64,000 nt of DNA from an uncultured Gammaproteobacteria bacterium (GTDB lineage Bacteria; Patescibacteriota; Microgenomatia; UBA10105; UBA927). A model generated the notes under the pieces. The model saw only the letters and a list, made by a program, of their open reading frames with translations. It made no database searches and was not told the origin of the DNA. The stretch covers positions 73,733 through 137,732 of the forward strand of contig CAZUOM010000002.1 in NCBI GenBank assembly GCA_964621305.1. The letters run 5' to 3'. Both the position numbers and the translations under genes were made by a program. Below, piece by piece: positions 38,738 to 53,499 of the stretch; within the stretch, counting starts at the first letter, position 1, and each line of letters starts with the position of its first letter.

Positions 38738-39178
38738 ATGTATACGTCTGCCCGATCTTCTTCGGACGATCAAACAGTAAGCTTGCCACAACAGTCGGTT
38801 TCTGGGGGTGGAGTGGCAATTGGTAAAGAGGTTGAGGTGGTAGGAGTTAGTAGGGTAGAAGCGGCTGCCATCAAAGAGATCGGACGAGAGATTGAGTTGC
38901 CGCCAAATGTCACAAACGCCGGTGTTCAAGTGCGCCCAACAACAGTGCAGATTCCCAAGCCAGTTGCCCAGATGGGAGTAAAACCAGCTGGCCAAACAGT
39001 TATGCCGCCTGCTGTTTCGGTTTCCTTACCGCTTTCCGATGAGCAGATTGCTAAGGGGATGCACCAGGGCATCACAAGTTCCTGGCGCTGGCTTGCCGAG
39101 TGGTGCCGCCGACGGCTCAAACAGGCCCACATTGTGCTCAAAACTTTTCATGGGAAGATTGCGCGGGTGAAATCATGA
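38738..39178 (+). CDS. hypothetical 146-aa protein
   Basis: ORF with ATGA coupling to the downstream ATPase gene. Confidence 0.5.
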   Translation: MYTSARSSSDDQTVSLPQQSVSGGGVAIGKEVEVVGVSRVEAAAIKEIGREIELPPNVTNAGVQVRPTTVQIPKPVAQMGVKPAGQTVMPPAVSVSLPLSDEQIAKGMHQGITSSWRWLAEWCRRRLKQAHIVLKTFHGKIARVKS

Positions 39179-41523
39179 ACGACCAATTTTTAGATCTTAT
39201 CTATAGACTTGAGGTTTTTGGTATAAGCCTACTGCTTATGATCCTCTTCATTGTTGGGTTTATTGTCTTGGGCTATATGTTATTTCTTGCTTGGAAATAT
39301 CGTAATCGAGAACAACACAGCTTGGACACTGTGCTCTTGCAGGTGGCAGTTCCCAGAGACAATGAGATAAAAATTGACGCGGCAGAGCAGATGTTTGCTA
39401 GCCTCCATAGTCTGTATCACGATGATAAATTGGCATTTCTTAAACCTCAAGAACATCTTTCTTTTGAGATTGTTGCAAAGCGGGAGGACGTCCGTTTTTA
39501 TGTGGCCATTCCCAAAAAACATAAAGATTTAGTTGAAAAACAGATCCATGGGTCTTATCCTGGAGCCGACGTCCGTGAGGTCGAAGAATACAATATCTTT
39601 TCAGAAAATGGTAAGGTAGCCTTTGCGGCTCTCCGGCTAAAAAACGCAAATTTTTGCCCAATTCGTATCTACAAAGATTTGCCGGTTGATCCATTATCCA
39701 CAATCACGTCAGTGCTTGCTAAAATGGGGGAGGGGGAGGGAGCAGCCATTCAAGTTCTGGTTCAACCAACCGGCGGAAAATGGAGAAGACAAGGTAGAGG
39801 ATATATTGCTCACGTTAAAAAAATCGAAGCAAACCCAGAAAAAGCGAGCTTTAAAGTTGACCAAAAAACGCTAGAAGCAATCGAACACAAAATTAGCAAA
39901 TCCGGTTACCACGTGGTCGTGCGGCTTGTAGTTTCTTCAACGAGCGAAGAGGGAGCCAAGCATCATCTGGAAAATCTCATTACTGCATTCGGACAGTTTG
40001 TCAGCGACCAGAACCATTTTTTCAAAGTCAAATTTCCCATTAAAAAACTGTTCATGGTGGATTTTGTTTACCGCTACTTTCCATATATTAACCCGCCAAT
40101 TTTTTCCCAATACAGCGTTCTTAACAGCGATGAGTTGGCAACCATTTATCATTTCCCCAACAAGTCTATTGAAACACCCCACATATTTTGGCTTAATGCG
40201 AAACGCGCTCCAGCTCCCATGCAAATTCCCCAGTCGGGATTGTTTTTAGGCATTTCTCGTTACCGGGGGGTTGACCGGTCGATTTATATAAGCGATGAAG
40301 ATCGAAGGCGCCACATGTATGTGATTGGGAAAACCGGGACTGGCAAATCGCAATTACTTGAGGAGATGATCATGCAGGACATTAAAAATGGAAAAGGCCT
40401 GGCGGTTGTAGATCCTCATGGAGATCTTATTGACGGGATTATGTCGAGGATGCCGCCGGATCGGGCAGAGGACATTATTTATTTTGACCCGGCCGATGAA
40501 GAACGGCCTATGGGACTCAACATGTTGGAAGCAAAAACCGAGCAGCAGAAACATTTCGTAGCAACAGCTATTGTAGGCCTCATGTATAAACTTTATGATC
40601 CGCAAAAGACCGGCATAATTGGTCCCCGATTTGAACACGCTATCCGAAATGCGATGCTTACGGTTATGTGCGAGCCGGGCAACACGTTTGTGGAAATCGT
40701 ACGGGTTTTGACTGACAGTGCATTCGTCCAAGAGTTATTGCCCAAAGTGCAGGATCCGATTATCCGTCGATATTGGACCGATCAAATAGCGCAAACGGCA
40801 GACTTTCATAAATCCGAGGTCCTTGACTACATCGTATCCAAGTTCGGTCGGTTCGTTACCAACAAGCTTATGCGCAACATCATCGGTCAGTCTGTTTCCA
40901 GCTTTGATATGCGAAAAGTAATGGATGAGGGAAAAATTCTTTTAGTGAATCTATCGAAAGGAAAAATGGGAGAGGAAAATAGTAATTTTTTGGGGCTTAT
41001 TCTCGTACCTCGCATCTTGATTTCCGCTATGAGCAGACAAGAGATCCCCGAGGATCAACGGCGGGATTTTTACCTCTATGTTGATGAGTTCCAAAATTTT
41101 GCGACTCCTGACTTTGCTCAGATACTCTCCGAAGCTCGTAAATACCGGCTCAATTTGGTTGTTGCCAATCAATTTATTGGGCAAATGGAGGAGGAGGTCA
41201 AAAATGCCATTTTTGGTAACGTAGGGACCGTGACAGCCTTTCGCGTTGGGGTAACGGATGCTAATTATCTTCAGCACGAGTATCAACCGACGTTTAATGA
41301 GACCGACCTCATCAATATTGAAAAATATAATGCCTATATTAAGACAACTGTCCATAACGAACCAGTGAAACCATTTAGTATAGATTTGACTAAGGACATG
41401 AAAAAGGTCACTGCCGAGCGAAATTCACAAATCGGCAAAGCGATTGTGGAACTATCCCGCCTCAAATACGGTCGGAGCAAAGAGTTGGTGGAAGCAGAAA
41501 TTGCGCAACGGGCACGCCTCTGA
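39176..41523 (+). CDS. VirD4/TraG/TraD-like type IV coupling-protein-family ATPase with two N-terminal TM helices
   Basis: Start MNDQFLD at 39176. TM region FGISLLLMILFIVGFIVLGYMLFLAW. Walker A VIGKTGTGKSQLL, Walker B LYVDEFQNF, and a TraG-D_C-like ARKYRLNLVVANQ segment. Confidence 0.7.
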
Positions 41524-41572: not shown

Positions 41573-42601
41573 ATGCGCATTGCTTTTACGTTTAATGTCA
41601 GACATGTTGCTGCCGCCCTTGAAGGGCAGGCGCAGGACGAGGCCGAATTTGATGAGCCTGCTACAATTGCGGCAATTCACAATGCTATCGTATCCAATGG
41701 ATACGAATGTGTAGACGTAGAAGCAAACGAAGAAGCTTATCTCAAATTAAAAAAGTTAAAAGGGAGTATAGACTTGGTTTTCAACATTGCCGAGGGGCTC
41801 CGCGGCGAGATCCGCGAGGCACAGATTCCGGCAATACTTGAGATCCTCGGGATCCCTTATACTCACTCCGGAGCTCTAACCCAAGCGATTAACCTTGATA
41901 AATCCCTCACCAAAAAAATTTGGCAGTACCACGGGGTGCCAACGCCTAGGTTTGTTGAGATAGGGCCAAAAGATAAACCATACGTTGAGGGTCTGCGTTT
42001 TCCGGTTATAGTCAAACCCAACAGTGAAGGATCCAGCAAGGGAATCTTTAACGATAGTCTTGTCGAAGTTGCGCAGAATTTACCAGCTAAAATTCACCAG
42101 ACCCGCAAGGCTTTTGGCAACGGCGTGCTTGTCGAAGAGTTTATGCCGGGGCGGGAATTTACTATTACAGTAATGGGCAACCCGGGGACAGGGAAGGGGG
42201 TTTATATGCTTCCGACTGTCGAACAGAATTACGACGTGGTGCCGGCAAAATATAAAAAATTTGCCTCCTACGAGGTAAAATGGCTTTTTGAGGATAAGTT
42301 GCCGGACGTGCGGGCAGCCTACATTTGTCCGGCCAAGCTTGATGCGAAGTTGGAAAAGCTTATTGCCGAGCATTGCATAAAAGCATTCACTGTTCTTAAT
42401 TGCCGTGACATTGCGCGCATAGACATTCGGCTAGATCTTTCCGGCAATCCTCACCTGCTTGAGCTTAACACGCTTCCTGGCATGATGCCGGACCCCAATG
42501 TTGTTTCCTATTTCCCCGTTGCGGCCCGAGCAGCCGGTTGGGATTTTAACCGGATGATTGGGCAAATCATTATTCACGCGAAAGAACGCCTTGGAATGTG
42601 A
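41573..42601 (+). CDS. ddl: D-alanine--D-alanine ligase family ATP-grasp enzyme
   Basis: Start MRIAFTF at 41573. ...FPVIVKPNSEGSSKGI... and LNTLPGM are ATP-grasp motifs. Confidence 0.75.
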   Translation: MRIAFTFNVRHVAAALEGQAQDEAEFDEPATIAAIHNAIVSNGYECVDVEANEEAYLKLKKLKGSIDLVFNIAEGLRGEIREAQIPAILEILGIPYTHSGALTQAINLDKSLTKKIWQYHGVPTPRFVEIGPKDKPYVEGLRFPVIVKPNSEGSSKGIFNDSLVEVAQNLPAKIHQTRKAFGNGVLVEEFMPGREFTITVMGNPGTGKGVYMLPTVEQNYDVVPAKYKKFASYEVKWLFEDKLPDVRAAYICPAKLDAKLEKLIAEHCIKAFTVLNCRDIARIDIRLDLSGNPHLLELNTLPGMMPDPNVVSYFPVAARAAGWDFNRMIGQIIIHAKERLGM

Positions 42602-42652: not shown

Positions 42653-42725
42653 GGGCCGGTAGCTCAGTGGTAGTAGCACTACTCTTATAAAGTAGGGGTC
42701 GATGGTTCGATCCCATCCCGGCCCA
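42653..42725 (+). tRNA. tRNA-Ile (anticodon UAU)
   Basis: Cloverleaf folded by eye: acceptor GGGCCGG/CCGGCCC, anticodon stem CTACT/AGTAG, loop cTTATaa, T-arm GATGG-TTCGATC-CCATC, discriminator A. No CCA is encoded. Confidence 0.7.
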
Positions 42726-42763
42726 CATAAGCAAAGAGAACACATCATACATCTAAAGAGCAT

Positions 42764-44578
42764 ATGCCAACCGAAAGAGCAGAAGCCAATTTGTTGCCTG
42801 ACTTAACGCCGAATCAGGTACAAGCAAAAAAGCAAATCCTCAATTTATTGAAATCGTTTTCTCCTACAAAGAAAGCGCTTGTGGTCGTTGAGGGGTTTTC
42901 TGGTGTCGGTAAATCGTTTGTTCTCCAACATCTTGAGGCGGAAGCTATGGAAAAAAAATTTATAACGCCTGGTGAGCGAAGGGACATTCAAAGTCTTTTA
43001 GGACAGATAATCTCTGATGCTAGCTGCGCAGGAGCAGTTATAAGTGTTGGTCCAGGTGAAACTAGACTTGGCAAAGAAAATATAGATTTTCTAGCTAGTC
43101 AAGCAGGGCTTAAGACGATTTCTGTCATTTTGCCAGGAATGGACAGAAAAGAAACGGAGGAATATCTTAAAAAAAATTTTTTAACAGTAGCCGAAGCACC
43201 GCTATCAAAAGATCAGTTAGCACGTTATTCTTTAGGGATTCCGTTGTTGGCGAGACGTTTGGTTGAGGGGGCGGTGAACGATCAACAAGCAATAGAATTA
43301 GTTGCCGAATATCTCTACGAAGTCACGCCAAAAGCGCTGTTAGACCCTGAAGTCGGAGTTTTAGAAAATTTTAGACAAGGGTTTTTTCGTCAACCTTTTC
43401 CTCAAGAGATAATTACTCGGCTTACAACAATTATCGTGGAAAAACGGAAACAGTTTTTGACAGAAGGAATACGATCGTATTTGGCAAAAACGAGAGACCG
43501 ATGGAATAAATTAAAAGAAGAGGGAATTGATGAAATTCCTGCCACTCCGCTAACAGAAGAAACCACTCAGATGTATATTCTTTCGGCCATAAATCGGCCC
43601 GAAGCAGCACTTTTCGGAATGATGCGGCACATAGAAATATTGGCGCCCGGCCTAAGCCAAGAAACATTCGAAAAAATACAACACAGTTTGGGGTTTGAGG
43701 TCGGTCGCTATGGTAAGCCAGAGAAGATTCCGAGAGGAAAGATATTTACTATAGAGGACGATAGATTGATTATTGCCGCATTTACCACCGATGGTACAGT
43801 ATACCTTCACGAAGGAAGGAGGGCGCATCAAGAGAACGGAGTTCACGTTGTCACTAACAGCGCAAAAAAAATCGTAGATCGAGCAAGAGCTGCAACATTA
43901 ATCCCAACAGAAACTCCACTTGGTAATGCAATCTATATGGAATATTTTGATCACGGCAATCTTCCAAACGACGCCATCAAAGCCGGCCTCATGGTAGAGA
44001 CGCTTTTGCAACACGTAGGCGTACCCTACTACGCGGTAAATACGTACGCGGGCAAAGAGTACGCGTATGTTCCGGAAGAAAATCGTTATTATATGCCACT
44101 AACTGAACAGACTCTATCTATCCGGGATATCCTTAATAACAAGGGTTTATCTGGTGTTGAAGAAGAGCTTAAAAGCCGAGGTGCTGACGAAGGCGTCATA
44201 CGAGAACACCTAGCTAAAGATCCACGAACGCGGCGGTTGCTTTTCGGAATTCCTAAAAACGTGTCGCTTTCATCCCTTCGGTCTATTTTGGAACAAAAAA
44301 TCAAGTTAGAGACAAATCCTGAGAGGCTGAAGGGGTTTGAATATTTGCAAGAAGATATTAAATTTAGCAGTAGTAGTTCATGGTCACTCTTAAGCGCTAG
44401 AGCAAAACTTGAAGTTTATGAGTTTGAGGCGATCGAAAAATTGAGAAAGATACTGTTTAGCGAGAATTTAGAGGAAAGAGCGAAAGTTGAAAACGGGTTA
44501 GATATGGCCACGGATTATGCCGTTATTCAAAAATTAAAAACTGAGATCACTGCGAAAATAATGAAGACAAGAAAGTAA
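42764..44578 (+). CDS. hypothetical 604-aa protein with N-terminal P-loop NTPase-like domain
   Basis: VVVEGFSGVGKSFVL is Walker A-like. The rest is unrecognised. Confidence 0.55.
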   Translation: MPTERAEANLLPDLTPNQVQAKKQILNLLKSFSPTKKALVVVEGFSGVGKSFVLQHLEAEAMEKKFITPGERRDIQSLLGQIISDASCAGAVISVGPGETRLGKENIDFLASQAGLKTISVILPGMDRKETEEYLKKNFLTVAEAPLSKDQLARYSLGIPLLARRLVEGAVNDQQAIELVAEYLYEVTPKALLDPEVGVLENFRQGFFRQPFPQEIITRLTTIIVEKRKQFLTEGIRSYLAKTRDRWNKLKEEGIDEIPATPLTEETTQMYILSAINRPEAALFGMMRHIEILAPGLSQETFEKIQHSLGFEVGRYGKPEKIPRGKIFTIEDDRLIIAAFTTDGTVYLHEGRRAHQENGVHVVTNSAKKIVDRARAATLIPTETPLGNAIYMEYFDHGNLPNDAIKAGLMVETLLQHVGVPYYAVNTYAGKEYAYVPEENRYYMPLTEQTLSIRDILNNKGLSGVEEELKSRGADEGVIREHLAKDPRTRRLLFGIPKNVSLSSLRSILEQKIKLETNPERLKGFEYLQEDIKFSSSSSWSLLSARAKLEVYEFEAIEKLRKILFSENLEERAKVENGLDMATDYAVIQKLKTEITAKIMKTRK

Positions 44579-44580
44579 TT

Positions 44581-44652
44581 ACAATTCTTCTAGTTTTACT
44601 CTCTCCGCTGGCTGGTCCTTGACAAATTCTGAATTTCTGATATTCTGAAAAT
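44581..44652 (-). pseudogene. duplicated 3'-end remnant of the tyrosine recombinase gene
   Basis: Minus-strand translation FQNIRNSEFVKDQPAERVKLEEL* matches the C-terminus of the intact recombinase (LEFIKGQPAERVKLEEL*). There are synonymous differences. Confidence 0.6.
44598..44632. repeat. left copy of ~35-bp imperfect direct repeat AGTTTTACTCTCTC(C/T)GCTGGCTGG(T/C)CCTTGA
   Basis: Matches 45362-45396 with 3 mismatches. Together they flank the AbrB-PIN cassette. Confidence 0.85.
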
Positions 44653-44913
44653 ATGATCTATACTGCGGTGATTAGACAGCGGGGACAACTCACGGTTCCC
44701 GACCGGATACGGGACATCCTGTCTTGGCTTCGGACCGGATCGGTAGTTGGCATTGAAGTGACTGGTGACGAATTACGCCTTACCCCTCATACGAAGACCA
44801 TGAAACCTATTGACTGGGACGCCTTTTTTTCCAAAATTCACTTAGCACGGTCATTTCGGGGGAAACGGGGAAACCTTTCTGCTGCGGTGGCAGAAGATAG
44901 AGAGAATCATTAG
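44653..44913 (+). CDS. AbrB/MazE-type antitoxin
   Basis: MIYTAVIRQRGQLTVPDRIRDILSWLRTGSVVGIEV is the SpoVT/AbrB motif. Confidence 0.7.
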   Translation: MIYTAVIRQRGQLTVPDRIRDILSWLRTGSVVGIEVTGDELRLTPHTKTMKPIDWDAFFSKIHLARSFRGKRGNLSAAVAEDRENH

Positions 44914-44914
44914 C

Positions 44915-45343
44915 ATGGTCAAACCGACAAAATTAGTCGTCGACTCTTCAGTATTGGTGAAGTGGGTAAATAGCCAGGATGAACAATATCTTGCACAAGC
45001 CGACGCCATAGCCCGCGACTGCAGAAGGGGAAAAGTCCTCTTGCTAGCCCCGGAATTAGCAAAGTACGAAGTAGCTAATGCACTGTGGAAAAAGGGGCTG
45101 CCGGCGCCGCAAGCCCAAGCATCTCTGGGAACGATTTACGTCTCCCCAGTAGAGTTTGTGAAGCAGGATGAGCAACAGGCGATGCGAGCAATGGAGATAG
45201 CCATCGCCACCCCGATGACCTTTTACGACGCCTCATCTTTAAGCCTTGCGGAATCTGTTGGAGCCACACTCGTTACAGATAATCCAAAACATCAGAAGAA
45301 GGTAAAAGGAGTAAAAGTAGTTTCGCTCAAAGACTATCAGTAA
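44915..45343 (+). CDS. PIN-domain toxin
   Basis: LVVDSSVLVKWVNSQDE... Confidence 0.75.
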   Translation: MVKPTKLVVDSSVLVKWVNSQDEQYLAQADAIARDCRRGKVLLLAPELAKYEVANALWKKGLPAPQAQASLGTIYVSPVEFVKQDEQQAMRAMEIAIATPMTFYDASSLSLAESVGATLVTDNPKHQKKVKGVKVVSLKDYQ

Positions 45344-45348
45344 TTTCT

Positions 45349-46215
45349 CTAGAGCTCCTCGAGTTTTACTCTCTCTGCTGGCTGGCCCTTGATGAACTCG
45401 AGGTATTTTTCCGTCGTCGAGAGGCGCTTGTGGCCGACGAGTTTACTTAGGGTGGTGATTGGCGTTCCCGCCATCAGGTGGTGGGCGATGAATGTGTGAC
45501 GGAGGTCGTTAACCTTGGCATCCTCAATGCCTGCCACTTTGAAATATCGGTCTATAGCGGTCCGGATATTACGGATAAGAAGAGGCTTGCCGGTTTTGGT
45601 AATAAAGAGTGCTTTACTCTTGATATTATCGCCGCGTATTATGACATAACGAGCGATTGCGTCCTTGGCTGCTTTGTTTAGCGGGATGCTTCGTTCCGCA
45701 TGCCCCTCTTGCGCGGCGATGTGGAGCTGGTTGTCTTTGATATCTTCAGTTGCCAAGTTAGCTAGTTCGCCGATACGTATACCGGTTTGCAAAAACAGCT
45801 CGACGATGGCATAAGTACGAATGTCTCCGCGGCAGGCATCACGAAGCGCCCGGTATTCCAGTTTGGACAAAATGCGGGGCGGCTTGATCTCATACTTGGG
45901 ATGCTCAATTTCTCTAGCCGGATCTACAGCGATAGCACCGCCTGACTTGAGGAACCGGAAAAAAGTTTTGATCGAGTTGATTTTGCGAGAAATGGACTTG
46001 GCCTTGTAATTGTCGCTTCCTAGTTTTTTGATGAATGCCTCTAATTCGTCCAGTGATACATCTAGTACAGCTTTTACCCCCATATTCTCGAGGAATGAGA
46101 CTAACTGTTCAATATCTTTGTGATATGCTACGATTGTGGCTTTGGCACGGCGGCGGCTACCGAGGTAGTCGGTAAATTGGGCATGTGCGGCTCGAAGGTC
46201 GGGTGTAGTAGCCAT
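45349..46215 (-). CDS. tyrosine site-specific recombinase (XerC/XerD-like)
   Basis: 288 aa. N-terminal core-binding domain and catalytic region with R...HxxR...Y (DLRHTFIAHHLMAGTPITTLSKLVGHKRLSTTEKYLEF). Confidence 0.85.
   Translation of the reverse strand: MATTPDLRAAHAQFTDYLGSRRRAKATIVAYHKDIEQLVSFLENMGVKAVLDVSLDELEAFIKKLGSDNYKAKSISRKINSIKTFFRFLKSGGAIAVDPAREIEHPKYEIKPPRILSKLEYRALRDACRGDIRTYAIVELFLQTGIRIGELANLATEDIKDNQLHIAAQEGHAERSIPLNKAAKDAIARYVIIRGDNIKSKALFITKTGKPLLIRNIRTAIDRYFKVAGIEDAKVNDLRHTFIAHHLMAGTPITTLSKLVGHKRLSTTEKYLEFIKGQPAERVKLEEL
45362..45396. repeat. right copy of the direct repeat, lying in the 3' coding end of the recombinase gene
   Basis: See 44598-44632. Confidence 0.85.
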
Positions 46216-46264: not shown

Positions 46265-46636
46265 ATGTTATACGTTTACAGAAAAACCCATTTAGTTCAT
46301 ATCCTCATAGTTGGGGTGAGTTTGCTTGTGGCTGTTACACTTTCTCGATCGGTATACAACCTTTGGAAGAAACATAACGTTGTCGGCAAGCGCGCAGAAA
46401 TACTTGCGATGGAACAAAGAGAGAACGAACGATTACAACAAGAGCTAATTGACGTACAAAAGCCAGAATTTATAGAAAAAGAAGTTCGTGAGAAGTTGGG
46501 CATGGCACGGGATGGGGAGGTAGTCGTCATACTACCGAAAGTACAGCCACCAGCTGACAAATTAGGCCTTAGAGATGGCAAAAAACAAACAAAAGAGACT
46601 TTTTATTGGTTACAATGGTGGGAAATTTTCTTTTAG
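46265..46636 (+). CDS. FtsB/DivIC-like septum formation initiator
   Basis: N-terminal TM then coiled coil (ENERLQQELIDVQKPEFIEKEVREKLGM). Confidence 0.6.
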   Translation: MLYVYRKTHLVHILIVGVSLLVAVTLSRSVYNLWKKHNVVGKRAEILAMEQRENERLQQELIDVQKPEFIEKEVREKLGMARDGEVVVILPKVQPPADKLGLRDGKKQTKETFYWLQWWEIFF

Positions 46637-52704: not shown

Positions 52705-53499
52705 ATGGCTAAAATTGCCCCTTTCATTGCTAGGCTGCGAGATTTAACTAATCCCCCAAAACAAATGTATTATCAGGGTAAGTGGAACGAATCACTGTTT
52801 AATAAGTGCGCGGCGATCGTCGGCACCAGGCGAATGACCCAGTATGGCAGGATGGTGATAGAGAAACTCGTACCTCGCCTGGTTGCGGACGGATATACTA
52901 TTGTCTCTGGTTTTATGTACGGCGTAGACCAGGCAGCCCACCGCGAGTGCATTACCTGCGGCGGCAGAACAATAGCGGTGTTGGGGTGGGGAATTAACTG
53001 GAACGGGATTGACGACGATGATACGAAACTACTGGCTGAAGTTGAAAAAAACGGATTAGTGATTTCCGAATGGGAAGAGCAAAAGCCAGCCCTCTGGACG
53101 TTTCCTCAGCGAAACCGTATTGTTGCAGCTATCGCACAAGATGTATTCGTGATTGAGGCGGCGGTCAAAAGCGGTGCACTAATCACCGCCCATATTGCGC
53201 AAAAACTCAAAAGAACCATTTGGGCTGTCCCCGGACCAGTCACCTCCAGCCTATCGGAGGGGACCAATAGGTTAATCGTTGAAGGCATCGCCCGCATGTG
53301 GCTGCCGAACATAGACTCTCGTGCGCCGTCTGCGCCATCAACAAACCCCATCATAGAGCTTTTGGAAAGGCAGGCGCTGGATGCCTCAGCAATTGCCAGA
53401 TTGCTCCATCAGCCGGTTGATGTCGTCGGGGCACAATTGTCTCTGTTGGTCCTTTCCGGTGAGATTATCTACGAAGAGGGGACATATTATGTTAATTAA
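52705..53499 (+). CDS. dprA: DNA-processing protein DprA (Smf)
   Basis: ...AAIVGTRRMTQYGR...VSGFMYGVDQAAHREC... is the DprA Rossmann-fold signature. Confidence 0.75.
   Translation: MAKIAPFIARLRDLTNPPKQMYYQGKWNESLFNKCAAIVGTRRMTQYGRMVIEKLVPRLVADGYTIVSGFMYGVDQAAHRECITCGGRTIAVLGWGINWNGIDDDDTKLLAEVEKNGLVISEWEEQKPALWTFPQRNRIVAAIAQDVFVIEAAVKSGALITAHIAQKLKRTIWAVPGPVTSSLSEGTNRLIVEGIARMWLPNIDSRAPSAPSTNPIIELLERQALDASAIARLLHQPVDVVGAQLSLLVLSGEIIYEEGTYYVN

Follow-up and report, generated by a model that had tools for sequence, protein, structure and literature searches.

Background

In rhs loci, one crossover inserts a circle bearing part of the core together with a tip and the genes that lie between, and the old tip is shunted downstream (Jackson et al. 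2009, PMC2935791). The arrays of the Vibrio type VI secretion system (T6SS) retain shifted 3' ends, an outcome that has been attributed to homology-facilitated illegitimate recombination (HFIR; Kirchberger et al. 2017, PMC5361080). HFIR, known from natural transformation (de Vries & Wackernagel 2002 and Prudhomme et al. 2002, as summarised in PMC3240628), usually leaves junctions with 3-10 bp of microhomology (PMC3240628). The dif modules, for their part, have at each end a 28-bp site for XerC/XerD, made of two 11-bp arms with inverted inner parts around a 6-bp center (11-6-11); the two sites are inversely oriented (PMC6449649). Here we compare with these systems a locus in a 64-kb DNA window (the whole stretch that was analyzed; positions are counted from its first nucleotide), in which a gene for a Xer-like tyrosine recombinase (hereafter xer) is adjoined at its 3' end by a toxin-antitoxin (TA) cassette, and the last codons of xer appear a second time on the far side of that cassette. 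We favor, with moderate confidence, the interpretation of this duplication as a homology-driven recombination scar ('C-terminal displacement') and not as an integration site.

The locus resembles the C-terminal displacement of rhs, contact-dependent inhibition (CDI) and T6SS genes in that homology would have served to attach a new 3' end and small genes to the conserved body of a gene, that the former 3' end, instead of being deleted, persists further downstream as a silent tip with unchanged orientation, and that the same routes (a circle with one crossover, or HFIR) can be proposed. Unlike in those systems, the gene here encodes a housekeeping Xer-like recombinase instead of a polymorphic toxin; both tips, displaced and attached, specify nearly the same peptide, without functional diversification; the tip comprises 13 codons, and a self-contained TA cassette, driven by a promoter of its own, forms the cargo; and there is a single displaced tip, with no array, in one of about 85 lineages examined. 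The hallmarks of displacement and HFIR are present, namely an orphan 3' fragment in the same orientation behind acquired DNA that is absent from relatives, two selected alleles, and microhomology at the junction. As in HFIR, there would be a homologous anchor on one side (xer, or tRNA-Ile/ddl), with the other end at a short microhomology and a net gain of about 0.7-2.6 kb of foreign DNA; the differences are that the microhomology of 11 nt is at or just above the usual 3-10 bp, that there is no deletion in the recipient, and that the process is reconstructed from the sequence. With the Acinetobacter dif modules and the integrative mobile elements exploiting Xer (IMEX) (PMC6449649, PMC13141974), the locus shares an accessory module of ~0.77 kb, TA pairs among the cargo, occurrence in several contexts and some link to Xer. 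Unlike those elements, the cassette in the window has no such site at either end, its repeats are direct and coding, and its other copies lack flanking sites.

Duplication of the 3' end of the recombinase gene

The features that concern the duplication and the cassette are the following.

44586-44629, no strand assigned: left repeat copy (direct-repeat search)
45356-45399, no strand assigned: right repeat copy, the coding 3' end of xer (direct-repeat search)
44579-44618, minus strand: orphan (displaced) Xer tail, 13 codons (DQPAERVKLEEL) plus stop (sequence and translation)
44619-44629, no strand assigned: junction microhomology, TTGACAAATTC (start of homology among cassette copies)
44619-44652, plus strand: cassette promoter and putative operator (promoter-like site search; conserved)
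44653-44913, plus strand: antitoxin candidate, 86 aa (sub-threshold PF04014; hhalign)
44915-45343, plus strand: PIN-domain (VapC-type) toxin, 142 aa (PF01850)
45349-46215, minus strand: Xer-like tyrosine recombinase, 288 aa (PF00589, PF02899)

A direct-repeat search recovered one dominant pair of 44 nt, identical at 37 of the 44 positions (longest exact run common to both copies, 14 nt) and spaced by 770 nt. An imperfect repeat of ~35 bp had been reported here in the original prediction, which was made from the sequence alone; the repeat is real, with the corrections that 45362-45396 pairs with 44592-44626 and not with 44598-44632, so that the left coordinates were 6 nt out of register, and that four mismatches rather than three are counted over the 35 nt. 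The search for further copies that was recommended there found the 31-nt core, AGTTTTACTCTCTCYGCTGGCTGGYCCTTGA, exactly twice in the window, with none expected from 100 shuffles. The right copy lies within the last 17 codons of the 288-aa recombinase open reading frame (ORF), the product of which ends in ...LEFIKGQPAERVKLEEL before the stop codon, and is, as had been supposed, the genuine 3' end of the gene. On the minus strand, the left copy encodes ...SEFVKDQPAERVKLEEL in the frame that closes at TAA (the reverse complement of 44579-44581), in line with the earlier description of a recombinase tail with synonymous codons. This orphan tail has neither a start codon nor upstream recombinase sequence, and a tblastn search with Xer finds the intact gene alone in the window; the left copy does not belong to a longer pseudogene. 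A second assembly (Logan SRR6943130, locus L002; L numbers designate the loci compared) contains the identical arrangement with the same left-copy peptide.

The repeat had been described as bracketing the cassette in the manner of an att pair, which does not hold at the left end. The 11-mer TTGACAAATTC has two identities: it is the cassette's -35 region, and its reverse complement gives the Xer codons for E-F-V-K (GAATTTGTCAA). It is present in the cassette promoter also in contexts unconnected with xer; the unambiguously xer-derived part of the left copy is confined to 44579-44618. Because the inner 11 nt of the left copy belong to both the promoter and the E-F-V-K complement, the junction between tail and cassette lies in this 11-nt microhomology. 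In L089, a relative with the same cassette in the same gap, two perfect, directly repeated copies of the 11-mer, one from the promoter and the other inside the xer gene of that locus, flank a 758-nt unit that consists of the cassette and the xer tail.

The sequences of the two tails bear on their origin. Orphan and attached tails differ at 8 of 39 positions, with seven silent differences (TAG/TAA counted) and a single replacement (G/D), whereas simulated random mutation yields at most one replacement with the stop retained in 0.02-0.06% of cases (P 1.9e-4 to 5.6e-4). Over 51 positions, the orphan tail differs from the attached one at 11, compared with 11 for L003, 10 for L086, 12 for L084 and 15 for L089, and a QPAER motif that is confined to the clade of the window is present in both tails. 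Given the silent bias, the divergence typical of different species and the QPAER motif, the orphan is therefore the former end of a working xer of a related lineage, and the two tails are, as far as sequence can tell, two once-functional Xer alleles from related lineages. The divergence is uneven, with 2 of 27 mismatched positions in the center and 9 of 24 in the flanks (Fisher p = 0.015), which fits a crossover inside the tail. The end of the attached tail, CTCGAGGAGCTCTAG, matches the cassette-bearing L089 at 14 of 15 positions; the orphan tail ends with GAA GAA codons, as in the cassette-less relatives.

We scanned the xer neighborhood in one genome per species, which yielded 80 loci with Xer identity from 50 to 88%. 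A second ...L-x-E-L-stop tail downstream of xer was found in none of these loci except that of the window itself. We conclude that the duplication is a singular event rather than something inherent in the cassette.

A mobile toxin-antitoxin cassette in a variable gap

The surroundings of xer and of the cassette include the following genes.

ending at 42601, strand not given: ddl, neighbor of tRNA-Ile
42653-42726, plus strand: tRNA-Ile(UAU) (ARAGORN), the conserved left neighbor
42764-44578, plus strand: P604, an orphan gene for a 604-aa protein with an N-terminal Walker-A motif (ORF list)
46265-46636, strand not given: divIC, neighbor of xer

The distance from the Xer stop to tRNA-Ile in the window is 2,622 nt. 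The cassette-less relatives that the original prediction proposed to look for were found: the gap measures 21 nt in L003 (Xer identity 88%) and 40 nt in both L086 (87%) and L084 (86%), with ddl next and tRNA-Ile convergent with xer in all three. The site is thus empty in three of the four closest relatives by Xer identity; the closest, L150 (89%), has a different VapC instead. This VapC/PIN gene (L150:1368-1784, minus strand) overlaps the xer stop by 4 nt and shows no homology to the PIN protein of the window at E<1e-4, so sister lineages have different TA toxins at the 3' end of xer. Between 5 nt and 4 kb separate the Xer stop from tRNA-Ile in the species surveyed, and the content of the gap is often ordinary (idi, upp), with occasional other TA pairs. 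An unrelated Phd/YefM-like and PIN pair, for example, occupies the xer/tRNA-Ile gap in L059 (1486-2159) and L060 (1680-2350), where the tRNA is oppositely oriented. We considered an integration hot-spot and rejected it: much of the cargo is ordinary (idi, upp), and the gap is variable but not organized as an integron-like array.

Homologs of the PIN protein with the 86-aa partner gene (68-77% identity) are found in at least six genomic contexts. The tRNA-Ile/xer gap is occupied in the window, in L089 (Xer identity 83%) and in L099 (50%); L090 carries the cassette between the genes for RNase J and ftsK, in the same genome as the empty xer site L084; in L093-98 it follows atpC; and L145, L147 and L149 represent three further contexts. 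In every copy, the similarity starts at the cassette's own -35 box, CTTGACAAATTC, runs through (C)TTGAcAAATTCnGAATtTCTGATAttCTGAAAAT-ATG and stops at the PIN stop codon, and in five copies from different contexts the homology begins exactly at the 44619-44629 junction sequence. Two copies from unrelated contexts are L099:2704-3429, in the tRNA-Ile/xer gap, and L093:7704-8429, between atpC and tRNA-Ala: their DNA is about 90% identical from TTGA[CT]AAATTC to the PIN stop and their proteins are 91-92% identical, the flanks are unrelated, and the two copies have no terminal repeats and no common flank. The exact limits of the mobile TA unit are thereby defined, from the -35 box to the stop codon. 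In L089 and L099 the cassette begins 3-4 nt after the tRNA, and neither locus has an orphan Xer tail; no flanking duplication was detected at any of the other seven cassette loci, where direct matches of 14-22 nt are at chance level. The empty site for L099 was sought in its nearest relative, which is just 63% identical and differently arranged. Empty counterparts of the RNase J/ftsK and atpC insertions were also sought among the sequences compared, and none contained these genes.

These observations indicate that the cassette is an acquired, mobile unit. The earlier proposal of a TA cassette at the 3' end of the recombinase gene thus stands as far as mobility and acquisition at this place are concerned, given the empty sites and the contexts; its other part, a site-specific or att-like duplication, is not borne out, as the seven other loci have no duplication and no dif dyad was found. 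The cassette subfamily was found almost exclusively in metagenomes of Microgenomates, members of the candidate phyla radiation (CPR); no relatives were found in viral contigs (IMG/VR), and among plasmids (PLSDB) there is only a VapC with 31% identity. The cassette lies next to genes for chromosome dimer resolution (xer, ftsK) at four of eight loci and in two of six contexts, which may reflect coincidence or targeting; at L090:7701-8475 (GCA_016194575.1), it is 46 nt upstream of ftsK.

Origin of the duplication

The proposed recombination scar would go back to a cell that contained two alleles of the tRNA-Ile/xer gap. The first would have had the order tRNA-Ile, TA cassette, xer, as seen today in L089; the other would have had tRNA-Ile, P604 and an xer with a tail ending in ...CTAGAAGAATTGTAA. 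The alleles would have recombined through their xer sequences and through the 11-nt match of TTGACAAATTC to the reverse complement of the E-F-V-K codons, so that the product would contain an intact xer with one tail, with the last 13 codons of the other allele shunted beyond the cassette, silent and beside P604. Two routes can be envisaged. A small circle made of the cassette and an xer tail could have entered by a Campbell-type single crossover with the chromosomal xer tail; alternatively, HFIR of a linear transforming fragment could have been anchored by xer homology on one side, or by tRNA-Ile/ddl on the other, with the join at the 11-nt microhomology. The pathway would presumably be RecA-type and follow DNA uptake. 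The window contains dprA (DNA_processg_A; 52705-53499), which encodes a RecA loader for transforming DNA; its presence is consistent with uptake and recombination of foreign DNA, and the competence of the organism is deduced from this gene only. The newcomer half may have been either the cassette with the xer side or P604 with the tail side; the relatives are too distant to tell (73-77% nucleotide identity in xer), and the P604 homologs lie elsewhere.

Several points weigh against this scenario. No relative with more than 90% nucleotide identity was found, neither parental allele has been observed, and no genome with P604 abutting an intact xer was found. A crossover inside xer could not be mapped by sliding identity against L003, L084, L086, L089 and L004, all at 73-77% of nucleotides. 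All of the tail statistics are drawn from about 50 nt, and the case for the attached tail having traveled with the cassette is weak because L150, which has the different VapC, also has the CTCGAGGAGCTT form of the tail. Finally, the cassette is found in the tRNA-Ile/xer gap of lineages with 50% Xer identity, while the PIN protein of L099 is 91% identical to a copy elsewhere, and it is also found beside ftsK; this recurrence is a hint of some targeting, for which plain homologous recombination offers no obvious explanation. Recurrence in the same gap could be accounted for by the conserved anchors, the tRNA and the C-terminal coding region of xer, and the ftsK adjacency may be coincidental; we consider a real targeting mechanism behind the recurrence rather improbable.

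The most direct alternative to a recombination scar is site-specific integration of a cassette circle by the neighboring Xer-like recombinase or by an integrase in trans, with an att or dif-like core situated in the xer tail and the repeats as attL and attR, much as in an IMEX or an Acinetobacter dif module; the candidate target for binding and cleavage by Xer would be either CTTGACAAATTCTGAATTT or that core. Such an event would account for a 0.7-kb unit that is flanked by direct repeats and neighbors a tRNA and the gene of a tyrosine recombinase, and for a repeat center that is nearly identical (2/27) between diverged arms, as a core would be; the recurrence of the cassette in the same gap at 50% Xer identity and once beside ftsK, and the TA-carrying dif modules of similar size (768 bp) in Acinetobacter plasmids (PMC6449649), also speak for it. 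We nonetheless regard it as unlikely. The check for a dif/Xer core was negative, with no 11-(5-9)-11 dyad of at least 9/11 complementarity in 44540-44680 or 45320-45440, intervals that cover both copies and their flanks, nor are the ends of the cassette paired by an inverted repeat. At the seven other cassette loci there is no flanking repeat, only the segment from -35 box to stop codon being held in common, and the Xer tail of L099 contains no similar sequence. Between species, the xer tail varies freely at synonymous sites, and is therefore under no DNA-level constraint of the kind that a recombinase core would impose. The copies differ at 7 of 44 positions with no exact run beyond 14 nt; with almost nothing but silent changes between them, they are tails of two alleles and no target-site duplication. 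The gene itself is divergent from divIC in most of the 80 loci and, judging by this synteny, is a conserved core gene and not an island integrase. A variant of the targeting idea, which we find more doubtful still, is that the cassette behaves as a homing element: the promoter/operator at its left end, CTTGACAAATTC-N-GAATTT, would also serve as a recombination site that corresponds to the conserved E-F-[VI]-K codons of xer in this lineage, so that the cassette would repeatedly target the xer tail/tRNA-Ile gap and also ftsK, possibly under catalysis by Xer. If so, the window would hold the only un-trimmed integration product, and a mobile TA module that extends from promoter to stop and has no transposase would be making use of the machinery for chromosome dimer resolution in CPR bacteria.

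The duplication might also have been generated in situ, for instance by replication slippage at the 3' end of xer, with the cassette inserted later or the copies aged in place. The copies do have the same orientation at a distance of 770 nt, and both contain the clade-specific QPAER motif; however, a decaying copy should gather mostly replacements, as opposed to the observed ratio of seven silent changes to one with the stop kept (P about 2-6e-4), the 22% divergence equals the between-species level of the whole gene, and the inner boundary coincides exactly with the conserved -35 box of the cassette. These findings make an in-situ origin very improbable. Lower still is the credibility of an assembly artefact, i.e., a chimeric join of the contigs of two strains in a metagenome-assembled genome. 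The source is indeed a metagenome bin (GCA_005239695.1, contig SBBN01000005.1, which the window matches in reverse orientation), but the arrangement is identical in the second assembly, the two copies are distinct in sequence, and the junction sequence they have in common is just 11-14 nt, a length below the k-mer sizes that are normal for assemblers.

Two further classes of element were considered and rejected. The cassette is not an integron gene cassette, in that no conserved sequence follows its stop codon (no attC) and it has its own promoter; the recombinase is not an integron integrase, its score on the integron-integrase model being 62.5 bits where 265 is the cut-off. A tRNA-targeting genomic island does not fit either, the repeat being one of the xer tail and not of the tRNA, and the recombinase being the syntenic core gene next to divIC.

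Read as a recombination scar, the locus offers a base-resolved example of cargo exchange among related CPR bacteria, which have tiny genomes and few recognizable mobile elements. A self-contained TA unit moves between conserved anchor genes of these groundwater bacteria, and in this case the ends of both parental genes are retained. This suggests a role in shaping the genomes for recombination through homologous or short matching sequences, presumably once DNA has been taken up. The locus would be an example of known processes and not a new kind of integration system; only the recurrence of the cassette beside xer and ftsK could lead further.

Predicted toxin, antitoxin and promoter

The original label of the cassette, AbrB-PIN, is firm for the second half and tentative for the first. 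The PIN domain of the toxin is recognized by PF01850 (E 4.9e-11, 43.7 bits against a cut-off of 23.6), the PIN proteins PAE2754 (E 2.8e-6) and PAE0151 in PDB also match, and eight orthologs agree without exception in the acidic motifs VVDSS, APEL, FYDA and VTDN. For the AbrB half, the evidence is sub-threshold: the MazE/SpoVT-AbrB profile PF04014 matches three antitoxin orthologs with E values of 0.02, 0.002 and 0.0009 (15-20 bits against a cut-off of 24.7), and hhalign aligns the antitoxin in register with the N-terminal domains of AbrB and MazE (E about 0.02-0.03). The antitoxin N-terminal domain is thus probably of the MazE/SpoVT-AbrB type. The AlphaFold single-sequence model has a predicted local distance difference test (pLDDT) score of 52.6, too low for a structure search; the sole match in a PDB profile search, a ribosomal uL30 fold, was judged spurious. 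All eight close loci, and most of the distant ones, have the antitoxin candidate immediately before the PIN gene, and in the window the antitoxin stop codon precedes the PIN start by 1 nt (44913/44915).

The cassette promoter comprises a -35 box TTGACA (44619-44624) and, after 16 nt, a TG-extended -10 box TATTCT (44641-44646); with a score of 10/12, it is the best sigma-70-like site in the region and is conserved in all eight cassette loci examined. It contains a palindrome, AAATTCTGAATTT, at 44624-44636 and three TTCTGA repeats 8 nt apart (44627, 44635 and 44643), which plausibly form an operator for the antitoxin and would mediate autorepression of the promoter. From family membership, the cassette is predicted to be an ordinary type II VapBC-like module, in which a PIN RNase toxin is neutralized by a MazE/AbrB-like antitoxin. 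As in type II VapBC systems with an AbrB/MazE-fold antitoxin, a small gene directly precedes the PIN toxin gene, the repeat-bearing promoter is suited to autoregulation, and the contexts are scattered; unlike in those systems, the antitoxin falls below every curated family threshold, and the activity is a prediction.

The Xer-like recombinase

The recombinase, present in one copy in the window by tblastn, combines the tyrosine recombinase catalytic domain (PF00589) with a SAM-like N-terminal domain (PF02899). Judging by the names attached to its closest homologs, the organism is a Gottesmanbacteria-like member of the Microgenomates. The best NCBIfam models are XerC, XerD and XerA, with 162, 158 and 156 bits against equivalog cut-offs of 335, 330 and 220, and no dif site cognate to the protein was identified; we call it 'Xer-like', a functional inference, because of these scores below the cut-offs and the lack of an identified dif site.

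The C-terminus, ...KLEEL followed by the stop, recurs in the majority of the 80 loci, even where overall identity falls to 50%, which suggests a functional C-terminal peptide, for example one for contact with a partner or with FtsK. The conservation concerns the extreme end (...V-K-L-E-E-L-stop; 45349-45366 in the window), and the preceding 6-8 residues are variable. In one locus (L068:5001-5883), the Xer match is in two pieces (residues 4-86 and 106-287) separated by an 88-nt gap, which may result from a frameshift, a small insertion or an assembly error.

P604 and conserved neighbors

P604 is a second piece of acquired DNA in the tRNA-Ile/xer gap, and its TAA stop codon directly abuts the stop of the orphan Xer tail (TAA/TTA). 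It is absent from all 80 species loci around xer. A search among 5.8 billion proteins returned four homologs, all distant (24-27% identity); one (L144) is encoded within a type IV secretion/relaxase (conjugative) cluster and another (L142) beside a restriction-modification system (EcoRI-type methylase/GmrSD locus). None of the homologs inspected in context adjoins xer, and the postulated parental allele with P604 next to xer was not among them. The profile match of the protein is a weak one to AAA_16, and the N-terminal Walker-A motif reads GFSGVGKS. There are weak PADLOC matches (PDC-M51B, AbiO and Nhi), which are confined to the P-loop.

In about half of the 80 loci, tRNA-Ile(UAU), usually convergent, is located downstream of xer and is followed by ddl and/or a TraG-like ATPase. 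The window encodes such a TraG/VirD4-like ATPase (DUF8128/DUF87/TrwB) at 39100-41523; in many Microgenomates it is a syntenic core neighbor, in the order tRNA-Ile, ddl, ATPase, and apparently not part of a mobile element at these loci. In most bacteria, AUA is read by a lysidine-modified CAU tRNA. The retention of a tRNA-Ile with the anticodon UAU beside xer across the Microgenomates loci, over the range of Xer identity from 50 to 100%, deserves mention in its own right.

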